From an uncultured archaeon (GTDB lineage: Archaea > Asgardarchaeota > Thorarchaeia > Thorarchaeales > Thorarchaeaceae), in contig CAYWJO010000009.1 in NCBI GenBank assembly GCA_964458565.1, positions 1 through 64,000 on the forward strand: DNA of 64,000 nt. Reading direction: 5' to 3'. The position numbers and the translations under genes are program-made. Below the pieces are notes generated by a model that worked only from the letters and a program-made list of their open reading frames with translations, ran no database searches and had not been told where the DNA came from. This document shows positions 4,608 through 42,973 of this stretch, in pieces. Numbering within the stretch: position 1 is the stretch's first letter; every line of letters starts with the position of its first letter.

Positions 4608-5087
4608 TCAGTATCCTCTAGCTGAAGATCGCCAAACAATGAATTTCGCACATGGCTCACTGCGACTACATCCATAGTACGTGTAGTCATTGCATTCGAT
4701 ACAGGGTGATGGTTTATCAATCGCCACTCGAATGTTATCATCACCTTTACTTTTCGTTACTTCCTTCATGATATCGAATCGTTGACGATATCTACCTAGA
4801 GTTTGCAATGCTTCTTCAGCTTCAGAGGTTCTTCCTGTTTCCTCAAATAGAAGAGCCAGTTCAATAATAAAATGCGGAGGGGCTGAATTAATTTCTATAG
4901 CTTTTCGTAGAGCTCGTTCTGACTCATCGTATCTTTTCTGACGCCGTAGATGTGAGCCAAGATAGAACCATCCCTGAGCATCACGTGGAAACGTTGTAAT
5001 TCTTCTACGTAAGTCGTCCTCATAGACTGTCAAATATGTTCCAGATGATGTGTGTTCTCTTATCTGGTTGGATTCATTTCTCAGCAT
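4608..5087 (-). CDS. TPR protein with C-terminal Cys4 motif
   Basis: WFYLG..L...ALRKAIEIN TPR; C-terminal PCIEC-x7-C-x5-C; GGGAGG RBS. Confidence 0.75.
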   Translation of the reverse strand: MLRNESNQIREHTSSGTYLTVYEDDLRRRITTFPRDAQGWFYLGSHLRRQKRYDESERALRKAIEINSAPPHFIIELALLFEETGRTSEAEEALQTLGRYRQRFDIMKEVTKSKGDDNIRVAIDKPSPCIECNDYTYYGCSRSEPCAKFIVWRSSARGY

Positions 5088-5091
5088 TAAG

Positions 5092-5108
5092 TGTCCTCCC
5101 GGCGGACA
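5092..5108 (-). promoter_or_regulatory. Hairpin TGTCC-GCCGGGA-GGACA overlapping the RBS of the TPR gene
   Basis: 5-bp stem includes part of GGGAGG, 4 nt upstream of the ATG. Confidence 0.45.
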
Positions 5109-5210
5109 GCATCCAGTACTCTGACCTTACGAAGAAACTAATATACTATATGGAAATTTCTAGAAATGCTTCACATGTACGATTTATCGAAGACTAATGG
5201 CGCCATGTGT

Positions 5211-5939
5211 CTATTCGATTTCTAAATAGATCCTCTTGTTTATTGCTCCTTTGCTTTTATAGTCCACAAGTCTAATTTGACCAACATCTGCAGTTGAGTT
5301 CACATGTGTTCCTCCATCAGCCTGCATATCTAAGCCAATGATTTCTACAATTCTTATCTCACTAACTGCTTCCGGAATTAAATTGACTTTCGTCCTAATG
5401 AGATCAGGAATTCGTAGTGCCTCCTCTCGAGGTAGAATCTTTGTCGTAATTTTTCTATCCGCTTCAACTTCTTGATTACACTTCGACTCTATCTCAGTTA
5501 TCATCTCTTTGGAGAGATTCTCAAATTCGAAGTCCATTCTCCCCTTTCCTGGATCCATATTTCCCCCTGTTACACTGACATGGTGATCTCTCCAAATAAC
5601 TCCGCATAGAATGTGCATGGCTGTATGTGTTCGCATGATCCTATGTCTTCTCTCCCAATCAAGCACACCTCTGATATCTGAACCAGGTACAATCTTTGGC
5701 TCTAATTCTTCAATCACGTGCTTTATCTCAACCCCCTCTCTTCTCATTTTCATTAGAGCATATTTCTTGTCATTCCAATAGATTACCCCTGTATCAAAAG
5801 GTTGACCTCCTCCTCCTGGATAGAATGCAGTCCTGTCAAGCGTAATTGCCCTCTCTTCTGGGAAAACGGAAGTTACTCTAGCAATGAACTCTCTGATATA
5901 TGGGTCGTTATAATAGATTAGTTCAGTCATCTCTCTCAT
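5211..5939 (-). CDS. alaX: Alanyl-tRNA editing protein AlaX-M
   Basis: LDRTAFYPGGGGQPFD, HTAMH, DGGTHV. Confidence 0.92.
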   Translation of the reverse strand: MREMTELIYYNDPYIREFIARVTSVFPEERAITLDRTAFYPGGGGQPFDTGVIYWNDKKYALMKMRREGVEIKHVIEELEPKIVPGSDIRGVLDWERRHRIMRTHTAMHILCGVIWRDHHVSVTGGNMDPGKGRMDFEFENLSKEMITEIESKCNQEVEADRKITTKILPREEALRIPDLIRTKVNLIPEAVSEIRIVEIIGLDMQADGGTHVNSTADVGQIRLVDYKSKGAINKRIYLEIE

Positions 5940-5940
5940 C

Positions 5941-7155
5941 TCAAAATTCTCTGAACTTGAATGAAAAGAATTCTCTTATTTCATCAGAATGATCTCCCAT
6001 CAACAATACATGATGATTAGCCAAAGAATCATCCAGGAAATATTCCACAGGTTCAGATAGTTTCACTTTAACCTGTGTTCTACATCCGCACTCATTATAT
6101 TGATTCTCTACAATTACCCCGGATGATACCCAATAGTCACTCAAGTCTTTTCCAAATACTTTGAACACAGTGACAGGTTGTTCATCGAATATACCCTTCA
6201 CAGCTACTCCTTGGCCAGTTTCAAAGTGAGTAGTAATATCATAATTTGCGAGAATTTCAGTTGGAGATGTACAATGTGCTAGAACAACTGTGTTAGCCTG
6301 TTTATCCAATTCAACAACATTGGCCATGAATGCTGGCTCTTGGGTGAGTAATTTTGTGATTAATAGAGTAAATGTTGAAGGAATATCTCCCTCACATCCT
6401 GCAACTATATCATCAATGTCATTCAGTTGTGATAATGCTAAGCAACCTGTGACTTCAGTCTGTTCAAATAATGCGAAACACTGGACTGTGATTGCATCGA
6501 GATCATTAGAATTAACCACATCTAGGAGTGCCTGCGTAACATGACCAGCACTAACAATATCTGCTTCTTGAACATACATATCATTCGCTGATGCAATGAA
6601 TCGATCAATGTCAGATCGCGATTTCTCAGTAAGTTGTGATTTCATATTGCTAATGAGATCCTTCAATTGGTACTTTTCAATAATGACTCCCCATTCATTT
6701 CTGACAAGGTCTCGATCAATGTGTGATGCTATTAACCAAGATGAGGGTTCTCCTACAATTCCGATTTTTGATTTACTCAATTTTCCAAGTATATTCGCAA
6801 ATTTAGTCCAATCCCTAATTCGTGATGTTAAATCTGATAATGGTGCATGCATCACTCTAGCAGGTATTCCTTGGCTCTGAAGATAGGTTCTTGTTTCCAT
6901 TGCTGCTGGAAGTGAATTGCTGGATTCATGTGCCAAGAGTGTAATTGTATCTGAGATAGTTCGATCTTTTAGAAATTTGGCGATTTTTTCTTCGGTACCT
7001 CCAGAGCCCACAAAGAAATAGCAATGAGATATTTCATCGTCATAATTATCTGGACTAATGATATTCGCGCCAGATTGTTTCAATGTTTCAATCAGATCGA
7101 TGATCCTTTCCTGTGGGGTGATTTCGGAGAAGAATGTGATGACATTGACCGACAT
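5941..7155 (-). CDS. L-fucose/L-arabinose isomerase-like protein
   Basis: GCEGD, AHCT, THFETGQGVAV, CRTQ, NHH motifs. Confidence 0.7.
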   Translation of the reverse strand: MSVNVITFFSEITPQERIIDLIETLKQSGANIISPDNYDDEISHCYFFVGSGGTEEKIAKFLKDRTISDTITLLAHESSNSLPAAMETRTYLQSQGIPARVMHAPLSDLTSRIRDWTKFANILGKLSKSKIGIVGEPSSWLIASHIDRDLVRNEWGVIIEKYQLKDLISNMKSQLTEKSRSDIDRFIASANDMYVQEADIVSAGHVTQALLDVVNSNDLDAITVQCFALFEQTEVTGCLALSQLNDIDDIVAGCEGDIPSTFTLLITKLLTQEPAFMANVVELDKQANTVVLAHCTSPTEILANYDITTHFETGQGVAVKGIFDEQPVTVFKVFGKDLSDYWVSSGVIVENQYNECGCRTQVKVKLSEPVEYFLDDSLANHHVLLMGDHSDEIREFFSFKFREF

Positions 7156-7247
7156 ATTGAAGCCCCTGAAGTACTGACCATAGGGATGTACTCGGATTCA
7201 CCAAAAATGGTCTTCTTAAATGAGTTTTCAATTATGATATGATAATT

Positions 7248-7820
7248 CTATGTTTGAGTTTCAGTGCCTTTCTTCGCAAGGCACGAATCTAGCAGACGCT
7301 CTTGTTTTGATTCAGAGAAGCATTTTGTATAGCAATCCCATAAGGTCTGATTGTTGGGCGAATTTACCATCAATAAAGTTAGAGTGTCCATTGCTTGATT
7401 TATTGCACCTCTGGCAAGCTGAAGAAGTAATAGCTCGTATAGGGTATCCGAGTTATCTGGATGAAGCTCATGTGACATTCGTAAGGCTAGTTCTGCTTCC
7501 CTAAGTCTTCCAATCCTAATTAGAATATCTCCCCACAATCTCCAAGTCCATGGATTAGATGTGTCAATATCTAGAGATTCTTTTATGGCATCTTCTGCTT
7601 CCTCTAACCTTTCCAGAGTAAGAAATACAAGAGCCAGCGCATTCCACATTATAGGGTTTTTTGGATCAAGCATCAGAGATCTTAAGCTAGAAAGTTCTGA
7701 AACGTCTTCGAGTTTTCTCACTTCTTCTAACTTGTCAGACATCTTTTGGTTATACGCCTGAATTAGAACTTCCTTGTAATGTTGGAGAAGCAATGCATCT
7801 TTATCCCCACTACTCGCCAT
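7248..7820 (-). CDS. TPR repeat protein
   Basis: DPKNPIMWNALA, NPWTWRLWG, HPDN, SPNN repeat spacing. Confidence 0.8.
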   Translation of the reverse strand: MASSGDKDALLLQHYKEVLIQAYNQKMSDKLEEVRKLEDVSELSSLRSLMLDPKNPIMWNALALVFLTLERLEEAEDAIKESLDIDTSNPWTWRLWGDILIRIGRLREAELALRMSHELHPDNSDTLYELLLLQLARGAINQAMDTLTLLMVNSPNNQTLWDCYTKCFSESKQERLLDSCLAKKGTETQT

Positions 7821-7842
7821 GATTCCACCATCAGTTGCTCAT

Positions 7843-7968
7843 TTATGGTCCATCATACCTTACCTTGAGCCATTCATATCTAAGAAGGGATTCACCTGTG
7901 TCGTCCCATTCAGGCAGCTCAACGGCTTGGTCCTCCGTTTTTGCTACCTTTCTTGATTCAGTCGACAT
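7843..7968 (-). CDS. Small 41-aa ORF (MSTESRKVAKTEDQAVELPEWDDTGESLLRYEWLKVRYDGP), not in ORF track
   Basis: AGGAG RBS upstream; ends 22 nt before the TPR start. Confidence 0.55.
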   Translation of the reverse strand: MSTESRKVAKTEDQAVELPEWDDTGESLLRYEWLKVRYDGP

Positions 7969-8018
7969 TTTTCTTTGCACTCCTTGACATCACTGGTGTG
8001 ACTGTCTAAGATAATTAG

Positions 8019-8042
8019 TAGAGTCTAGGCCTTAGAGTCTAG
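8019..8042. promoter_or_regulatory. Tandem TAGAGTCTAG quasi-palindromes (8019-8028, 8033-8042), possible operator
   Basis: Exact 10-bp direct repeat with 14-bp period upstream of the small ORF/TPR unit. Confidence 0.35.
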
Positions 8043-8274
8043 CTCAAGACCAAGTTGAGTTTTTTAAACAATAATTTCTATAAATAGAACTAATATAGCA
8101 TCTCCCAATAACTTCTGAGCATTTATAATACTTTATTTAATTCCTTATGGCTATATCGGGTTAATTTCGATTCTAATTTAAGCCAAGAATCAAAGCTCAA
8201 TCGTTATTATCTCTTACAAATTCATCGTTCGGAATTGATAGGAAAAAATGAATATCTTAAATGTTGATAGTTTG

Positions 8275-8440
8275 AAAAGGTAGGCGGGAGTTGATCCCCG
8301 CCTGTATAACGAAGGTATCTTGCTCTTTGCGTATCCATGTTTCTCCGTTCAAGATATCCAAAGGTCGCCACATTGAGGAGGACACACCACACAGGCGATT
8401 ATCGTAATGCTACATTCCGAGGAATGTACCTCTTGTACAG
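8275..8440 (-). ncRNA. Candidate structured sRNA with anti-SD CCUCCUC loop
   Basis: TATA-like 8451-8474; stems TACATTCC/GGAATGTA, TCGCC/GGCGA and AGGCGGG/CCCGCCT followed by ACCTTTTC; strand inferred. Confidence 0.4.
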
Positions 8441-8600
8441 AGACACACGGTATATAATATGGTAATTATATATAGTAAAGGAATATCGTTCTCCGCAAAA
8501 TTCTGCTTGGATTGATTTATAGCGGTATAGCAATTTGATGTTAGAAATTTTATAAGCACTCCTGATGAAAAGATAACCCAGGGTTCAGGAGTAATACGCA

Positions 8601-9305
8601 ATGATCTCAGATGCACAAACCTCAGAGAAGACAAAAACTAGAGACATTCCCCCGTGGTTGGGACGAATTGGTTGGTATTTCGTCCATGGCTTTCTATATT
8701 CGCTTTTGACATCATTTCTTGGTGTCTTTGTATTCATAATTTTGTTTCCTATTGGAATAGCTTTCGCTGTCATAGGATTAATTCTTATCATTATCGTCCT
8801 ATTCCTTGTTGTCGGATGGGTTAACAAAACACTCTCAAGATTGCTATGGGATATTCACTGCAGTGGGTCTTTCAGGAGTATCTTTGGTCATGGGGTGATG
8901 CTTGTCATAGTCCTTTTTCTTTTCTTTATCCCTATTGCAGCTTATCAAACCGTTTTCCAAGAATCAGTAAGTGATCCAATTGTTTGGCTTGCTGTCCAAA
9001 TAGTTGCTATCATTCCATATTCTATAATCTATGGGTTTTTGGGACGGATTGTAGCTGAGCAATTCTTGGACTCAAAACAGTATATCGGTGGAAGTATGCG
9101 CCATCGTCGCGGATCAACTCTGGTTGACTTTGGTACTGTTGAACCAACACCCGTACAAGGTACATGTCCTCATTGCTCTCAGAAACATTGGTATGATGAG
9201 TCAGGGCTTTCGCAAGATCGATCAATTACTTGCAAGAATTGTGGTGAACGATATATCATTCCATTGGCTGATGGTCCTTCAGAGGATGATGGAGTGATAA
9301 GCTAG
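8601..9305 (+). CDS. Membrane protein (about 4 TM) with C-terminal zinc ribbon
   Basis: Hydrophobic segments; CPHC...CKNC. Confidence 0.75.
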   Translation: MISDAQTSEKTKTRDIPPWLGRIGWYFVHGFLYSLLTSFLGVFVFIILFPIGIAFAVIGLILIIIVLFLVVGWVNKTLSRLLWDIHCSGSFRSIFGHGVMLVIVLFLFFIPIAAYQTVFQESVSDPIVWLAVQIVAIIPYSIIYGFLGRIVAEQFLDSKQYIGGSMRHRRGSTLVDFGTVEPTPVQGTCPHCSQKHWYDESGLSQDRSITCKNCGERYIIPLADGPSEDDGVIS

Positions 9306-9325
9306 AAGTCAGAGAAATAGTGAGT

Positions 9326-9346
9326 GAAGGTGGTAACACCACCTTC
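9326..9346 (-). terminator. Hairpin terminator after metG
   Basis: GAAGGTGGT/ACCACCTTC 9-bp stem between convergent genes, pyrimidine tail on minus strand. Confidence 0.6.
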
Positions 9347-9353
9347 TTCTATT

Positions 9354-11423
9354 TTAAGCTGCTTTGCTTCCCGGAGGAAGATCCTCAAGAGTTACAGGTA
9401 TCCATTTACCGGGTTGATCTGCTTTCTCAACTGCAAGGATCATTCCTTTACTCTCGATTCCACCAATCTTCTTTGGTTCAAGATTGACTAAGAACAGTGC
9501 TGTCTTACCTCGAAGTTCTTCAGGTGTGTACTGATCTGCAAGACCTGTAACGATTGTACGGGTCTCATAACCAATGTCTACCTTCAGTTCTAGTAGTTTG
9601 TCCTTTTTTGGAACCTTTGTGCATTCTAGTATCAGTCCTGCACGCAGGTCTATCTTCTTGAATTCCTCGAATGAAACTGGCTCTTGTTCTGTTGGCACTT
9701 CAGTATCACCTCGCTCTTTGGCCTCAGCTGACTTCACTCTCTTTGAGATGATGCCATTAAGCTCTTCTAGTAATTTATCATCTATTTTATCAATCACAGG
9801 TTTTGGAGGTTTCAGCTTTGCACCTACTTCTGGGGGTACAAGCGCGTCATCAAGAACTGTATCATGAACTTCCGAACCATTGAATCCGAGCTGTGACCAA
9901 ATTTCCTCTGCCACACCTGGCATGAATGGATCAATCAACACTGCAAGCGCTTTGGTGAGAGCTATTGCATTATACAATACCTTTCCAGCTTTGTCCTTAT
10001 CTTCCTTAACAAGCTTCCATGGCTGGTTTGATTGGAAATACTCATTACCAATGGATGCTAGTCGTAGGACTTCGTCACTCACTTTCTTGAGTTCGTATTC
10101 ATTCACAGCTGTAGAGATGACCTCGATAGCATTTTCAATATCTTTCTTCAACTTCGGATCCAGCTCACCCTGTGGAACTACACTAAAATGTTTGTGGGTG
10201 AAATGGAGACCTCGATATATGAAATTGCCAAAGGTTGCAACGAGTTCGTTATTCACCTTGTCTGCAAGAGCCTCAAAACTAAAGTCAAGATCTTTCGTCT
10301 GACTCGTTCCTGCAGTTATGAAGTACCTGAGGTAGTCTGGATTTAGTCCTCTATCTAGATAGTCATCCTTGATCCAGACGACATAACCTCTACTCCGACT
10401 GAAGTTGTGGTTCTGAATCTTGACCATACCCGATGCAACGATTGCAGATGGAAGGTTGTATCCGCTAGCTTTTAGCATTGAAGGCCAGAAGATGCAGTGA
10501 TGGTGAACGATATCTAATCCTATATAATGGATTATCTTACTATTTCCAAGCTTCCAATATTTCTCCCATTCATCAGGTTTTCCTATTTTCTTCGACCACT
10601 GCTCCGTACTGGATATGTAATGAATAGGCGCATCAACCCAGACATAGAGAGTAAGGCTTTCATCGCCTGGGTACTTTATCCCCCATTCAAGGTCTCTAGT
10701 TATGCACCAATCTTTGAGACCCTCTTGCAACCAACCCAAAGCGAAATTCTTGGCATTCTTCGTTCCGTCAACATCTTGTAAGAATTTCTTAAGGAAATCC
10801 TCAAACTGACTAAGTTTGAAGTAGTAGTGGGTACGTTTGATTTTCTTTGTAGGAGCTCCACAGATTGCGCATCTTGGATTAAGAATCTCACCTGGTTCAA
10901 GATATCTGCCGCATCCTTGATCACATTCGTCACCACGGGCATCAGCATGACAATAGGGGCATTCACCACGCACAAACCTATCTGGTAGTGAGCGTTTGCA
11001 ATTTCCACAATATGGTGTTTCAAGCTCTTTGGGATAGATGTAATCATTCTTCTGCCATTCTTTCACTATCTGAATTGTTCTATCCACATTCTCTTTATCG
11101 TTTGTTGTCCCATAGTTGTCGAATAGAATATTCAGTTTTGGAAATATCTCTAGATAATGCTGATGATTTCTCGTGTAAAGTTCCTTTGGTGTGACGCCTT
11201 CCTGTTCAGCTGTGGTCAGGATTGGAGTTCCATGTGTATCTGATCCACAGACAAAGGTGACGTCCACTCGCATCTTCTTTAAGAGCCTGACAAAGACATC
11301 GGCTGGCACATATGTGCGGAGGTGACCGATGTGCATCTCCCCACTAGCGTAGGGTAGTCCGCATGTCACAAGTACTGGGTCTTTAGTTGGGTAATTACTC
11401 AGTTTTATCACGCTCCTCTGCAT
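9354..11423 (-). CDS. metG: Methionine--tRNA ligase with C-terminal tRNA-binding domain
   Basis: LPYASGEMHIGH, Zn knuckle, YVWVDA, FSRSRG (KMSKS equivalent), C-terminal OB fold. Confidence 0.97.
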   Translation of the reverse strand: MQRSVIKLSNYPTKDPVLVTCGLPYASGEMHIGHLRTYVPADVFVRLLKKMRVDVTFVCGSDTHGTPILTTAEQEGVTPKELYTRNHQHYLEIFPKLNILFDNYGTTNDKENVDRTIQIVKEWQKNDYIYPKELETPYCGNCKRSLPDRFVRGECPYCHADARGDECDQGCGRYLEPGEILNPRCAICGAPTKKIKRTHYYFKLSQFEDFLKKFLQDVDGTKNAKNFALGWLQEGLKDWCITRDLEWGIKYPGDESLTLYVWVDAPIHYISSTEQWSKKIGKPDEWEKYWKLGNSKIIHYIGLDIVHHHCIFWPSMLKASGYNLPSAIVASGMVKIQNHNFSRSRGYVVWIKDDYLDRGLNPDYLRYFITAGTSQTKDLDFSFEALADKVNNELVATFGNFIYRGLHFTHKHFSVVPQGELDPKLKKDIENAIEVISTAVNEYELKKVSDEVLRLASIGNEYFQSNQPWKLVKEDKDKAGKVLYNAIALTKALAVLIDPFMPGVAEEIWSQLGFNGSEVHDTVLDDALVPPEVGAKLKPPKPVIDKIDDKLLEELNGIISKRVKSAEAKERGDTEVPTEQEPVSFEEFKKIDLRAGLILECTKVPKKDKLLELKVDIGYETRTIVTGLADQYTPEELRGKTALFLVNLEPKKIGGIESKGMILAVEKADQPGKWIPVTLEDLPPGSKAA

Positions 11424-11666
11424 TCTTTAAGGGTCGAAAATTCTGCTTCGCGCTGAACTTGAAAGGTATGTAACAAGAAGGCAGGAGACCTATTCTGTAG
11501 AGTCGTCTGCAATAGTTCTTCTGTTGAAATTGTTGTTCTATCGTTACCTTGAAGCTTATTTCCCGCCTTAGAATGCTAGAAGTGTGCTTGAATCAATAGA
11601 ATATAACTGTTTGCTCAAGTATGTGGATTGTGTCTTTAAAGATGCCAAATTGCTCCTGTTTCTAAC

Positions 11667-11712
11667 AAATGCATACGCGAATTCAGATTTTATCCTGCAA
11701 TCGTATGCATTT
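11667..11712. repeat. 11-bp inverted repeat AAATGCATACG/CGTATGCATTT with 24-nt spacer
   Basis: Read directly in the metG/phosphoesterase intergenic region. Confidence 0.55.
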
Positions 11713-11737
11713 CTTGTTTTGTTTACATATCAAAGGA

Positions 11738-11761
11738 ATTTTGGAACACGTGTTCCAAAAT
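11738..11761. promoter_or_regulatory. Perfect 24-bp palindrome ATTTTGGAACACGTGTTCCAAAAT
   Basis: Exact self-complementarity in divergent promoter region. Confidence 0.6.
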
Positions 11762-11920
11762 AATCAATTCATTCCTATTAGTGAAATTCTGTTTTATAAA
11801 AGGAAACGCGGTGTGCTGATTCCCTTGTAGATGATGACATAATGAGAGGAAGAACTATATTGAACCTCTGGAATAGCTAGGTCTTAATAAGATGAGAGTT
11901 TCATAATTGAGGTCTTTCTA

Positions 11921-13054
11921 ATGCAAACATTTCAGAAAAAGATTGGGCTTATAGTTTTGATTGGAATACTGTCAACGCACTTTCTTGGATTCTATCCTGC
12001 AATAGCAAACGTTCCAGAAATCGCTGATGAGATGTCTTTCAACTTTATAGCTTATGGTGATACAAGAGGTGATGGGGTTCCAGTATCACCTCTCCACGAT
12101 GACATCATTGAAGACTACTTGGCATTCAATCCTGAACTCATAATTCATTCTGGTGATCTTGCATATCATGGTGGTGAATGGTATCAATGGTTGGAGTTCA
12201 ATGAATCAATGACTGCAGTTTGGGAATCTGGTATACCTTTCTATGTTGCACCAGGCAATCATGAGATGTATACGGATGACTGGGTGAATGACCCAACATT
12301 CACCAACTATACTCTGTATGTTGATTATGAAGACATTGCTGCAGCTTGTGGAGGAACAGAACTCTACTACTCTTTTGATTATAATGAAGTACACTTTGTA
12401 ATCCTCAACACAGAGCATGATTGGATTGACGGTGAATTCCAACTCTCATCAGAGCAAATGAGTTGGGTAGAAGCAGATTTGGGCAATGTAGAAAATGAAA
12501 CATTCGTAGTTGTTACCTTTCACCGTCCTGCATACTCTGCCAGAGGTGGTGGTCTCCCTTCGTCAATCCAGAAAGAGCTTCACGACTTCTTTGTTAGAGA
12601 AGATGTGGATCTTATTTTCAATGGACATGATCATATGTACTATCGGACAGAGAGAGATGGCATTTTCTATGTTGTGACTGGTGGTGGAGGTGCTCCACTA
12701 CATGATTATAATGATACTGGACTCACTTGGCAAGAGGGAGATTTTGCTGCAAAAGAACATCATTTCTGCAATGTAGAGGTTAATACGACCCATGTGGTAG
12801 TATATGCATATTCACTCAATGGGACTATCTTGGATTCCTTCTTCATCGAGAAACCGTTAATCTCTATATCAACTACAACTATTCCTTCTACAAGCACATC
12901 AAGTGAAACGACCGCAATTCAAACGACAACAACTACAACAACGAGCGAAACAATTTCGTCTCCAACAGGAAATATGGGGCTTATTTCGATACTAATTGCT
13001 GGAGGTATTATGTTAGTTCTCGTAGTCATTATCGTTATAAAAAAACGGTCGTAA
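11921..13054 (+). CDS. Surface-anchored metallophosphoesterase (purple acid phosphatase-like)
   Basis: Signal peptide; GD, GDLAY, GNHE, GHDH motifs; Thr/Ser linker, C-terminal TM and KKRS tail. Confidence 0.9.
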   Translation: MQTFQKKIGLIVLIGILSTHFLGFYPAIANVPEIADEMSFNFIAYGDTRGDGVPVSPLHDDIIEDYLAFNPELIIHSGDLAYHGGEWYQWLEFNESMTAVWESGIPFYVAPGNHEMYTDDWVNDPTFTNYTLYVDYEDIAAACGGTELYYSFDYNEVHFVILNTEHDWIDGEFQLSSEQMSWVEADLGNVENETFVVVTFHRPAYSARGGGLPSSIQKELHDFFVREDVDLIFNGHDHMYYRTERDGIFYVVTGGGGAPLHDYNDTGLTWQEGDFAAKEHHFCNVEVNTTHVVVYAYSLNGTILDSFFIEKPLISISTTTIPSTSTSSETTAIQTTTTTTTSETISSPTGNMGLISILIAGGIMLVLVVIIVIKKRS

Positions 13055-13159
13055 CATTTGTGAAAAGCTCTGAGTCCTCCTGCATCTCTATTAAAGCATC
13101 ATCTTCTCCATCATAAAGAATCTCATAGAACTATTTCGACTTTTTTTAAATCAAAGAAA

Positions 13160-13280
13160 TGAAGTGAGGAGGAGAGGTGTGGGTGGAGCCGGGGAGGACC
13201 ACCCACTGTGTCTCTGCCCTTGCCGGGAGGCGCTTGTGCGGAGACAGCAAAAACGACCTCATTGTGAAATGAGGAGCATA
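13160..13280. ncRNA. Candidate three-hairpin structured RNA with repeated GCCGGG(G)AGG loops
   Basis: Stems 13179-13206, 13209-13246 and 13257-13274; strongly GC-rich relative to surroundings; strand uncertain. Confidence 0.55.
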
Positions 13281-13285
13281 ATATT

Positions 13286-13426
13286 TCATGAACTAGCGTA
13301 TAAGGCTCTAAGACTCTGAGCATCGGAGTCAGTTGGTTCGCGATCGCTGTCTAGTAATCCGTATAGTACATGGAGGACTTCAGCATTTTTCTGAAGAGTT
13401 GAGGTCGGTCCTGCTTCATTGCTCAT
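13286..13426 (-). CDS. Small 46-aa protein (MSNEAGPTSTLQKNAEVLHVLYGLLDSDREPTDSDAQSLRALYASS)
   Basis: GGAGA RBS before ATG 13426; lies inside ORF 13286..13510. Confidence 0.5.
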   Translation of the reverse strand: MSNEAGPTSTLQKNAEVLHVLYGLLDSDREPTDSDAQSLRALYASS

Positions 13427-13658
13427 TTTCGTTCTCTCCGGATTGTACCCTTCTATTATGGTACAACTTACCTCTACTTCCACTGAATTTCTATATAAGG
13501 TTGCGTGCAATGCTAACCCTCTCTACGTAATATCCACAGGATATGGTGATATTCCTCTGGAAATATAGTAAAATAATACCTCTAAAGAGGGAATAGTCTG
13601 GTTTTACAACGCCTAATCAAAGTCGTTCCATAAGAACAGAAGGGGAGAGGGAGGTCAT

Positions 13659-16600
13659 CTAGAGTGAGTCTTCTTCCTCAAACAAACCCCAATCCACAGT
13701 ATCGTGAGTGTGTATCTCAGGATCTTGACAGGGTACAATTAGCTCTTGTTTTATTGCATCCAATATATTCAGACACGCCTCGGCTTCACTCATACCACAA
13801 TCTGTCATATTACGAGCAAGATGGATTGGTCGTGCACATTCTTGTATTCCAGTTTCAAGCATTACGGTTTCCAAACACCTGAACCTCTTAGGAAATACTT
13901 CTGCAGTCCCACGCTTGTAGTAATATAGTAAGTATCCATCCATAATGTCTTCAAAGTAGTCATCGAGCATCATTATACTTTGGCTATCTAGGGTTTCGTA
14001 GGGTGCTTCTTCGAGAGTGGAATCAAGTGTCACTCCCACTGATTTGGCATATTTCACCATTAGCTTCTCTTGAGCCATGGAAGCTGGAGAGATTGTAATG
14101 AATGCACAGATGAGATTCAGTGTGGGTACAATGCGGATAATATCTGAAATCGGGATCACTTCCCAAATCCAGTCCTCTTCAGATTTATCCAATTCTCCAC
14201 GAAAGTGAGTGATAGCTGTAATGAAGGCGGATATCATGCTCTCTTCAAATCCACCTTTGAGTATATTTGAATAGACTGCAAGACCACTCTTCTTATGTAA
14301 CACAATAATTCCAATCAAACTATCAACATCATCGAATCTCTTCTTAGCAGCCAGGGCTCTTTGGAATTTCTCAGCTTCTCTCTTTCTATAAACTCTGTAA
14401 CTTGAACCAACTACCAATCCAATGAAACCAATCAATGCTATTGGAGGTGTATATTGAGTGAGAATTACTTGTAGGGGATAATCAGGTGGATATCGTTGAA
14501 ATATTGGTTGACTGAACGCTGTTTCAAGGGTGTGGAATTGCTTATTCAGAGTGATGTTCAACCTATAGTTACTACCATCGGACCAAGCTGGTCTGATTTC
14601 TATTGTATAATTTCCCTCTAAGTCTGAATTCTCAGGAATAATTCCAGAATCTGCTTCAATTTGATTAACAAACAAACGATATGTCAGTATTGCCCCGGTA
14701 ACTAGATAGCCATTATCATCTTCAAGAGTCAGAGTGATTTTCAAAGGTTTGCCCCACTCCCACTCCAATGGATTCATCTCAATATAGACAGAAATTGGCC
14801 TGACACTGATTGAGAATGAAAACTTCCTATATTGATATCCCTCTTTGACAAATGTAATCTCAGGTGAATATGTTCCTATATCATAAGCACTAATGGTGAG
14901 ATTATAGTAGCCATTTCCTACGTCAACAACTGATACCCACTCAGAGAGAATTCCACTTATAGTCACTGCAGCTCCTACTATACCGCTCTCGTTTTCAGCA
15001 AATGAATACTTGAATTGCAGTATAGCTGATCTTCCATAAACTAAATCTGCATTGGAATCAAGTCGTGTAATAACAGCTGGTATTTGATTGACCTTAACGG
15101 TTAATTCAATTGTTTGAGTCTGATAATTTGGTTTTGTAAATTTAATAATCAAATCCCAGTGACCAATCATGTCACCAACAAAAGTAATGATATAGATGTC
15201 ATCTACAAAACGGATACTTGAACTAATATTCTCAAAAGTTAGGAAACTAATTCCAACAGATGCTTCTGAAATGTTGGCACCATTATCTATTCTTTCAAAT
15301 AATACTGAAATCTGGACACTACTAAGATATTCAATATTTGTATCAGGAAAACCACCAATTAGGGTGTATCTTGTTTCTATATTTGTCACCTGTAATGTGA
15401 ATGCAGCGGAAGCATCAAGATAATCATCTACAGTAGCCCTAAACACGATTTGGTATGAACCTATTTCATATGGTATAATATTGATTGAATACATTCCATC
15501 TCCAAGTTCTTGTAAACTTGAGAATCCTAGATTCTGTGGAACGTTAAGCGGTTCGATTGTTGCAAATTCTATCCCCCCATTCATTGCACTACTAAAATTA
15601 AAAACTAGATTGCATGTTTGGTCTATTGAAATGCTCGAGGGAGGTTCAATTATAGTCAAGCTAGATGCTATCTTTGGCGCGTTGATTGTAAACGGTATGA
15701 TCTGTTCTTGATGATTGAGCACCTCGGCTCTAGCTAATAGAGTGTAGGTTCCAGATGATGTAGGTGTTAAAACCACTGAATAATCTCCTTGTCCAACTTG
15801 GGTCACATTAGTGTAAATAATGCCTATACTGGGTGTCATGGAAATAACTGAGATTGTCGCATTCACAAGCCCTGAACCTGATGAATTCTCGTATCTTAAC
15901 ACGAGTCTGTAAGTCTGTCCTATTTGTGATAATCCTCCCGTTCCATTCAGAGAATAAAAGTCTGTTCCAATTTTTCCTACTGACAGGAAGAAACCATCTT
16001 CTGCTTCTTCGTAATAGTCCTTCCAAGCAGTGACTATTACCTCGTATGTTCCTGATTGGAGTGATGTTATGTTGAATGAATAAGTTCCAGGACCCGCCTG
16101 TTTAGGTTCATCTATGAATAATCCTTCTGGTTTTTCGGGAACCACAATAGAGATATTAGCATCATCAATACCGATTCCAAAACGATCCTTGTATTCAAAG
16201 GTTGCCTCGAATGTTGAAAACAGATTCATACCAGCTGAGGATTGAAGAAGTGTCAAGGAATTATCAATTAAATTAACAGTAATAGTAAATGTGCAATTTG
16301 CATAATCATAGTATGGAAGAGATGCATTCACCAGAGTTGTATATACACCCCCATCTGCAAGGTCAGTTTCAAAATCACCCTCCCATCTATTTTTAATTTC
16401 ATTAGGGCTGAATGGTACAATTGATCCAGACCAATTGGCTTGAATTGATGCATCTGGATTCATCAGATATTCGCCATTATCTGCATCTCTAAATCTAACA
16501 AATCCTGTTACCAATTCATCAATACCCGATTCTGCAAGTATGCTGGGATTTATTGCTTCGAGGTAACTTGCATGATATAGTGCAAATTGCGAGGAAGAAT

Positions 16601-42556: not shown

Positions 42557-42601
42557 CTTACTCGGCTTTCACCGGGCGATGATGACTAATCAGTCTTATG
42601 T

Positions 42602-42973
42602 CTAAAATGCAGGCTTTGGATTCAAGACATAACGGACCGTGTTAGAGAACAACCTCAAATCTCGGACAACTCTCATTCTATCAATACTGGGTGCACTAAG
42701 CTGGTTAGCAATATCTCTGCATGTTACATCTTTGATTGCTCTAAGCAGAGCAGTACTGTCTACTTTAATGATACCACTTTCCACTTTACCATAAAACTGA
42801 TTGACTGATTCGATAAAGTTATGATTTGCATCTCTCAGTTTTGAGATGTCCTCATTATTCATTAATATTTCAATAAGACCACTAATACGATATTGTAGTA
42901 CTTCGATGGAATCTGCAGGTACCTCGATTTTTAGAAATGTTCTCTCCTTTGTATCGTTGTACACTGAGTACAC
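42602..42973 (-). CDS. Hypothetical protein
   Basis: 123-aa ORF between clear genes. Confidence 0.55.
   Translation of the reverse strand: MYSVYNDTKERTFLKIEVPADSIEVLQYRISGLIEILMNNEDISKLRDANHNFIESVNQFYGKVESGIIKVDSTALLRAIKDVTCRDIANQLSAPSIDRMRVVRDLRLFSNTVRYVLNPKPAF

Follow-up and report, generated by a model that had tools for sequence, protein, structure and literature searches.

Does the stretch of DNA at the start of contig CAYWJO010000009.1 (positions 1–64,000, forward strand; assembly GCA_964458565.1), from an uncultured Thorarchaeaceae archaeon, hold an RNA that tunes the translation of other genes by pairing with their ribosome-binding sites (RBS)? The question is raised by two sites in this 64,000-nt window (the whole stretch analysed), namely a structured element lying behind a small-protein gene (element 1) and the leader of a gene for a TPR-repeat protein, which have in common a short word resembling a Shine-Dalgarno (SD) sequence. 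An earlier, sequence-only reading of the window had joined both sites, together with a second structured element (element 2), into one circuit of translational control, in which the elements would either mask the RBS from the minus strand or act as decoys from the plus strand. Comparison with related genomes makes it near certain that element 1 is a real, previously undescribed RNA family restricted to one Asgard family (Thorarchaeota), whereas its pairing with SD-containing leaders, the reading preferred here, is given a probability of about 0.45.

The comparison is indispensable, since the shared 9-mers are at chance level in the window's own genome (3.73 Mb, 93% complete; G000). The word GCCGGGAGG occurs seven times on both strands, against approximately 6.9 occurrences expected from base composition, and, with up to one mismatch, twice in the window (3.0 expected). 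The word GGAGGACAC occurs 15 times in the genome (approximately 14 expected) and twice in the window (0.29 expected), where one hit is simply the query. The caution that SD-like words are over-represented, expressed with the original proposal, was therefore justified, and the case must rest on other genomes.

Element 1 and its microprotein gene

The features of this locus are as follows.

13175–13281, most likely minus strand: element 1, a conserved three-hairpin RNA of about 105 nt (covariance model R1)
13179–13206, 13209–13246 and 13257–13274, plus-strand coordinates: hairpins H1, H2 and H3 of element 1, respectively
13222–13230, minus strand: invariant apex of H2, reading GCCGGGAGG on the plus strand; a minus-strand transcript would show CCUCCCGGC, complementary to the leader word at 5095–5103
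13286–13426, minus strand: microprotein gene of 46 amino acids (MSNEAGPTSTLQKNAEVLHVLYGLL...LYASS, then stop), with the stop codon 4 nt before element 1
13427–13499, minus strand: promoter and 5' untranslated region (UTR) of the microprotein gene, with TATA-like CTTATATAG at 13491–13499 and a 5'UTR reading CAGUGGAAGUAGAGGUnAGUUGUACCA...

Homologues of element 1 were found in relatives by blastn, and their alignment resolves three hairpins: H1, with variable sequence inside a conserved GUGGG.../...CCCAC frame; H2, with the stem GUCUC/GAGAC and the invariant apex UGCCGGGAGGUGCA; and H3, which reads CCUCAU/AUGAGG and is followed by AGCRURA. The covariance model R1 matches exactly one copy per genome in 64 of the 86 family genomes (21 of the 23 high-quality ones) and has no match in 125 genomes of 26 other Asgard families. 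Among the 53 distinct sequences aligned, 94.7% of cells are paired, compared with 36–59% when the partners are slid, and compensatory changes were detected in 11 of the 24 pairs versus 3.8 ± 1.4 in shuffles, with none of 500 shuffles reaching the observed value. The names of homologous proteins place the host family in Thorarchaeota. The covariance comparison proposed by the sequence-only reading thus bore out its view of 13179–13246 as a genuine conserved RNA immediately behind a small-protein gene. The Rfam search that it had also suggested was run and returned nothing at the elements: Rfam 15 gave zero matches at the gathering threshold across the whole window, the E-value mode applied to 7800–13700 gave only chance-level matches (E 1.8–6.4), none of them over either element, and related loci were likewise without a match. 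A tRNA scan found nothing at the elements, and a repeat or mobile element was ruled out, both elements being single-copy in the genome.

The recurring motif had been placed in both main loops of element 1. Both strings are indeed present in two hairpin loops, GCCGGGGAGG at 13189–13198 and GCCGGGAGG at 13222–13230, but only the H2 copy is invariant, being retained in about 50 of the 53 distinct homologues; the H1 loop varies, with a GGAG-like word in 31 of the 53 sequences, mostly from one genus, and none in the other 22; most sequences also have no GGA in the H3 loop, itself variable. The two-loop architecture was accordingly abandoned in favour of a single invariant loop. On the minus strand this H2 apex is usually preceded by CA, which yields the anti-SD-like sequence CACCUCC, usually within CACCUCCCGGC.

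The most likely transcript of element 1 is a minus-strand one, in which it would form the 3'UTR of the 46-amino-acid microprotein mRNA; from there it may possibly be released as a small RNA (sRNA). This orientation is suggested by the fixed and co-oriented position of the element directly behind the microprotein stop codon, which lies 0–10 nt from the H3 end on the same strand in 50 of the 54 loci examined. Nucleotide-level conservation extends, in most relatives, over the promoter and about 60 nt of the 5'UTR (CAGUGGAAGUAGAGGUGAGUUGUACCAC...), so that the whole transcript, beyond the open reading frame (ORF), is under constraint; no conserved TATA was found in relatives upstream of the element on the plus strand, where many flanks are G+C-rich. 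Moreover, a conserved and very basic ORF of 38 amino acids (MATTENTKLARSKGTSSLLRKHRLQAERTLRRRLK..), co-oriented with the microprotein gene, follows element 1 in 19 of 53 loci (L054–L080 and L082, mostly genus g6) and starts 18–28 nt past H1 in the 17 loci measured, which is too near for a promoter of its own; in these 19 loci, transcription probably continues through element 1 into the ORF. It was not found in the window's genome, and what had been taken in genus g6 for a long gene starting right after H1 is actually this ORF. The stem of H1 also favours the minus strand: intermediates between its G-C and A-U pairs, as read on the plus strand, are A·C in 14 cells (G·U on the minus strand) versus two cells of G·U, and for 44 of 53 sequences H1 folds more stably in its minus-strand form. 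In lineages L094, L098 and L090, H2 favours the minus strand as well.

The microprotein is 67–98% identical to its aligned homologues, all of which are Thorarchaeota proteins named 'hypothetical'. It has no Pfam match at E ≤ 0.01 and no Foldseek match against the PDB at E ≤ 0.001, and AlphaFold2 predicts two helices (pLDDT 83); the ESM atlas, Pfam, the homologue names and Foldseek yielded nothing on its function beyond a two-helix hairpin. A pairing in cis between the 5'UTR box GAGGUG and the loop CACCUC of the microprotein mRNA was considered and rejected, as the changes seen in the window and in genus g10 are not compensatory.

The leader word and its complement

The sites bearing the word in leaders, and the transcript bearing its complement, are the following; those on contigs 53 and 2 lie elsewhere in the window's genome.

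4608–5087, minus strand: gene of a TPR-repeat protein of 159 amino acids with a Cys-rich C-terminus (Pfam TPR_2, TPR_1 and others), candidate target
5088–5110, minus strand: hairpin of the TPR leader, stem UGUCC/GGACA and loop GCCGGGA, with the word CCGCCGGGAGG at 5095–5105 overlapping the SD
Contig 53, 14505–14515 (L101): word in the leader of a gene for an 89-amino-acid protein; further leaders of this gene at L128–L130, L141, L147, L152 and L157–L159
Contig 2, 157728–157856 (L100:929–1054), plus strand: methyltransferase 5'UTR RNA of about 125 nt (model R2)

The leader of the TPR gene reads as had been claimed, UGUCC-GCCGGGA-GGACA-C-UUA-AUG on the minus strand. Orthologues at only 38–46% protein identity all keep CCGCCGGGAGG, 7–13 nt before the start codon (10 genomes, 7 genera); the remainder of the leader differs between them, apart from a short flanking stem, GUCC/GGAC, replaced by GGCC/GGUC in one genus. 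The word common to the element 1 loop and the TPR leader is therefore conserved at both sites among the relatives compared, as the proposed link between the two had implied.

At the scale of the family, CCGCCGGGAGG is present in 83 of 86 genomes, with 298 matches versus approximately 85 for a reversed control, and it makes up 17 of the 71 SSSSSGGGAGG words in five good genomes, where 1 in 32 would be expected. Across the phylum, every one of 27 family genomes has it, with about 3.5 copies per genome, as opposed to 13 of 93 from other Asgard families, where the 16 matches in total equal the control level. The word, enriched in the Thorarchaeota family only, therefore has the same distribution as element 1. 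Within the family, contig 113 of genome G013 carries eight tandem 15-nt units with CCGCCGGGAGG (42559–42674), probably a coding repeat, which inflates the count of that genome.

An ordinary SD interaction explains part of the word. The 16S rRNA of a relative has CACCUCCU and then ACGC at its tail; SD pairing therefore accounts for GGAGG and not for the preceding CCGCC, and the notion that the word is an extended SD facing an extended 16S tail was rejected on the same ground. The assembly of the window's own genome contains no 16S gene. In two relatives, the 16S genes (L115 in G019 and L117 in G004) have an insertion, possibly an intron, just before the terminal GAUCACCUCCU, and the end of the gene is uninterrupted in G009.

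The word recurs in the leaders of two other genes. The first encodes a conserved 89-amino-acid protein (MMMFxRMLRRQGFYRVKN...) with no Pfam match, and its leader keeps CCGCCGGGAGG inside a covarying stem, GUCNN/NNGAC, in 10 genomes of 7 genera; there the word follows a TATA box by about 30 nt and precedes the start codon by 9–14 nt. The second is a glutaredoxin/thioredoxin-like gene (..YLITQDNCVNCPAAKA..), in which the word stands about 30 nt before the start (contig 2 near 215564 in the window's genome; L135 and L161); its leader in the window's genome has the 9-mer only.

The complement is displayed by a different transcript. In 8 of 9 loci, a class-I methyltransferase gene is encoded opposite to the strand bearing the word, and a conserved TATA (CCTATAAAT, read in reverse) stands 25–30 nt before the methyltransferase 5'UTR RNA in the sense of the gene. 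The conserved TATA and the downstream gene together fix the orientation of this RNA, which consequently displays the complement CCUCCCGGCGG. Model R2 is single-copy in 25 of 26 family genomes and matches none of 125 genomes of other Asgard families, and the RNA has no Rfam match. It shares its layout with the minus-strand form of element 1, namely a UAUGCUC box, a small hairpin and a long hairpin with a CCUCCCGGC apex, the apex here being CCUCCCGGC(GG). That an RNA of fixed orientation uses the complement sense supports the minus-strand reading of element 1, and of the two strand alternatives offered at the outset, the complementary, anti-SD-like one appears the better supported. The leaders and this RNA further indicate that transcripts bearing the word and transcripts bearing its complement both exist in these organisms. 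Approximately 130 nt before the methyltransferase RNA, on contig 2 of the window's genome, lies an intron-containing tRNA gene with a 37-nt insert (L100:694–800, plus strand).

Two further small hairpin types carry the word. One, designated type 4, is an RNA of about 65 nt, GGCGUCC...CCGCCGGGAGGACGA...GGACGCC, conserved in several genera (L132, L137, L143, L146, L153 and L163) and without an Rfam match; the other (L121 and L160) ends in CGAACCUCCGAC. A few occurrences of the word are coding or due to chance, and one site of the window's genome, C4:74255, was discarded as a chance coding occurrence, being inside a HEAT-repeat gene on the other strand.

Proposed pairing with leaders and competing explanations

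The preferred reading is that element 1, as a minus-strand 3'UTR or a 3'-derived RNA, pairs with leaders containing an SD. Its CCUCCCGGC apex mimics the anti-SD CACCUCC of 16S rRNA, and the core of the leader word CCGCCGGGAGG is exactly complementary to it. The putative targets would be the few conserved genes with the word in a small hairpin over the SD, namely the TPR gene at 4608–5087, the 89-amino-acid protein gene and the glutaredoxin-like gene. The leader hairpin loop GCCGGGA would make the first contact with the H2 apex, loop to loop, and pairing could spread from there into a G+C-rich duplex of 9 bp, CCUCCCGGC/GCCGGGAGG, covering the SD and thereby blocking or otherwise tuning the initiation of translation. 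Repression of initiation is the likely effect by analogy with CcsR-type RNAs (PMC8034643) and with sRNA41 (PMC5867862); activation through opening of the leader hairpin may also occur.

Structure predictions are compatible with such a contact. The minus-strand H2 apex is predicted as an 8-nt loop, ACCUCCCG, closed by UGC/GCA, and GCCGGGA is predicted to occupy a 7-nt loop in the TPR leader. The predicted hybrid has an energy of −19.4 kcal/mol (−22.2 with flanks), and opening of the two partners costs 4.75 and 6.13, leaving a net value of about −8.5 to −11. Both the TPR leader and the 89-amino-acid protein leader contain a 9-nt perfect complement of the apex within their SD-containing word, as expected for the anti-RBS class. 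When the duplex energy with the H2 apex was computed for 4461 start regions of the genome, these leaders ranked first and second, respectively, about 5 standard deviations below the mean.

Several observations weigh against this reading. The energy ranks are partly circular, both leaders having been noticed through the same word. Loop and leader word are both invariant, so that covariation between RNA and target is not observable. Only nine of the 11 bases conserved in the leaders have a complement in element 1; in most genomes the methyltransferase 5'UTR RNA provides one for all 11, and it may be the better partner of the leaders. In the predicted minus-strand fold, three to four of the nine pairing bases are within a short stem. 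The plus-strand H2 tip, UGCC-GGGAG-GNGCA, resembles the leader hairpin of the 89-amino-acid protein gene, UGCC-GCCGGGAG-GGCA, so that a shared protein ligand would also fit. For 38 of 53 sequences the plus strand gives the more stable H2, much of this coming from invariant G·U pairs, and the H2 of lineages L093 and L066 contains U·G pairs that can form on the plus strand alone; whole-element folding energies are tied between the strands (27 versus 26). A strand call from folding energy was therefore set aside as ambiguous, H1 pointing to the minus strand and H2 to the plus strand. The 9-mer is not over-represented genome-wide in the window's genome, its frequency there being that of the SD background, which had been named beforehand as a reason to give up the circuit; the enrichment is that of the 11-mer, which exceeds this background family-wide. 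Finally, we infer the strand and transcription of element 1, together with pairing in vivo and the direction of its effect, from sequence.

A wider version of the proposal is more tentative, and rather doubtful at present: the 3'UTR RNA of the microprotein and the 5'UTR RNA of the methyltransferase might both display CCUCCCGGC(GG) and pair with the CCGCCGGGAGG hairpin leaders of the TPR, 89-amino-acid protein and glutaredoxin-like genes, which would constitute a post-transcriptional regulon proper to the family.

Known systems offer partial parallels. The closest in arrangement are the CcsR ('cuckoo') sRNAs with the small DUF1127 protein CcaF1, from Rhodobacter sphaeroides and other Alphaproteobacteria (PMC8034643, PMC4615179), in which, as here, a hairpin RNA with a C-rich, anti-SD-like loop comes after a small-protein gene, in the same orientation. 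The position of element 1 after the stop codon, its probable origin from a 3'UTR and the conservation of the module as a unit within a clade are further likenesses, and the analogy drawn by the sequence-only reading is apt as a description of how element 1 might work. However, element 1 belongs to another domain, is single-copy where the CcsR RNAs form tandem repeats, and has one invariant loop, CCUCCCGGC, where each CcsR RNA has two, with the sequence CCUCCUCCC; its microprotein lacks DUF1127 or any other Pfam match. Among archaea, sRNA41 of Methanosarcina mazei (Buddeweg et al., 2018, as summarised in PMC5867862) was proposed to repress translation by masking the RBS of a few specific mRNAs, and a similar masking is proposed for element 1. 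sRNA41 is intergenic, has its own promoter and is experimentally supported, whereas element 1 is attached to a coding gene and known from sequence, and its candidate targets are monocistronic leaders folded into hairpins; the two are likened by description, not by sequence relatedness. With its other loop word, its single invariant loop, and no DUF1127 or Rfam match, element 1 belongs to neither the CcsR/cuckoo RNAs nor sRNA41.

The most serious competitor confines element 1 to its own mRNA, with the hairpins serving in termination, 3'-end protection, processing or as a protein platform, and with the complementarity to leaders left unused. A role of the 3'UTR in cis (termination, stability, microprotein binding) is plausible and weakens the case for pairing: the element is strictly attached to the microprotein stop codon, H1 on the minus strand is in many genomes a G+C-rich hairpin followed by U runs, the whole transcript unit is conserved, 5'UTR included, and in the CcsR system the neighbouring small protein binds RNAs (PMC8034643). 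As the entire explanation it is nonetheless unlikely, for a terminator or stabiliser needs no invariant 9–13-nt loop while its stems vary, the same apex recurs in a second, unlinked family-wide RNA, and the complement of this apex is conserved in leaders of the Thorarchaeota family only. Transcription that probably runs into the downstream ORF in 19 loci also speaks against it.

Recognition in the same sense is less probable still. An RNA-binding protein or other factor would here read the GCCGGGAGG hairpin, the leaders being its operators and a plus-strand element 1 its decoy or competitor. The likeness of the plus-strand H2 tip to the 89-amino-acid protein leader, the better folding of H2 on that strand, the plus-only U·G pairs of some lineages and a TTTAAA upstream on the plus strand in the window would all agree with this; the TATA, however, is not conserved in relatives, the ORFs flanking element 1 are co-oriented on the minus strand, the GCC of the word has different surroundings, being part of the loop in the TPR leader and of the stem in H2, and the methyltransferase 5'UTR RNA shows the complement instead of the word. 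The best-known model for such a scheme is CsrB/RsmZ, to which the sequence-only reading had appealed for its decoy variant. A plus-strand element 1 would show GGA-containing loops as these RNAs do, yet it has a single invariant GGGAG loop (H2) instead of many GGA loops, and no conserved promoter; CsrA (PF02599) was not found in the window's genome, 93% complete, while control genomes gave matches, and the decoy variant was given up. The leaders may also be likened to RNA thermometers or translational operators, in that those of the TPR and 89-amino-acid protein genes hold half of the SD in a short stem; they differ in that the loop sequence is also conserved across genera and common to unrelated genes, which suggests a trans-acting ligand over a simple thermosensor.

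It is very improbable that element 1 is conserved for an unrelated function and that the TPR leader matches it through a chance overlap of SD-like words, as the background frequency of the 9-mers in genome and window and the lack of conservation of element 2 might suggest. Both partners are invariant across a family whose flanking sequence has diverged, and the extended word is four to eight times over-represented relative to composition-matched SD words, only in the family having the RNA. Least probable of all is a DNA site, CCGCCGGGAGG being bound by a family-specific transcription factor just past start sites and its presence in element 1 being incidental: the word does lie about 30–40 nt downstream of TATA in the TPR and 89-amino-acid protein genes, near the transcription start, and occurs in both orientations in genomes, but it is non-palindromic, invariably overlaps the SD with a constant spacing to the start codon, and stands between hairpin arms whose covariation points to selection at the RNA level, in element 1 and R2 at the apex of covarying stems.

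Element 2 and the meaning of the motifs

One further feature of the window had been drawn into the circuit.

8270–8446, minus strand: element 2, with an AT-rich TATA region at 8450–8480, a stem UCGCC/GGCGA around GUGUCCUCCUC, and a 3' GC hairpin at 8275–8300 followed by a U run

The string GGAGGACAC is present at 8377–8385, as had been noted; the membership of element 2 in the circuit did not survive comparison. Blastn of 40 relatives found no homologue, Rfam gave no match, and with the 9-mer at chance level nothing ties this element to element 1, its match to the TPR leader being most likely a coincidence. The region 8250–8450 has a minus-strand fold with a z score of −3.3, and element 2 resembles a stand-alone sRNA gene on that strand, to be treated as a separate candidate. 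Between it and another TPR gene (7248–7820) lies an unlisted ORF of 42 amino acids (MSTESRKVAKTEDQAVELPEWDD...; 7840–7968, minus strand) with GGAG upstream.

A limited look at the literature found no description of regulatory RNAs in Asgard archaea, organisms hard to culture, for which conserved sequence signals are the main entry point. What emerges here is a pair of new RNA motifs found throughout the family, together with a conserved microprotein and a short word connecting these with the RBS of specific genes. Should the pairing prove false, the two RNA families and the leader word would still call for an explanation. Should it prove true, control by 3'UTR-derived anti-SD RNAs would have arisen independently in the archaeal lineage closest to eukaryotes, and the regulon, if real, would give the Asgard archaea their first defined RNA-target network.

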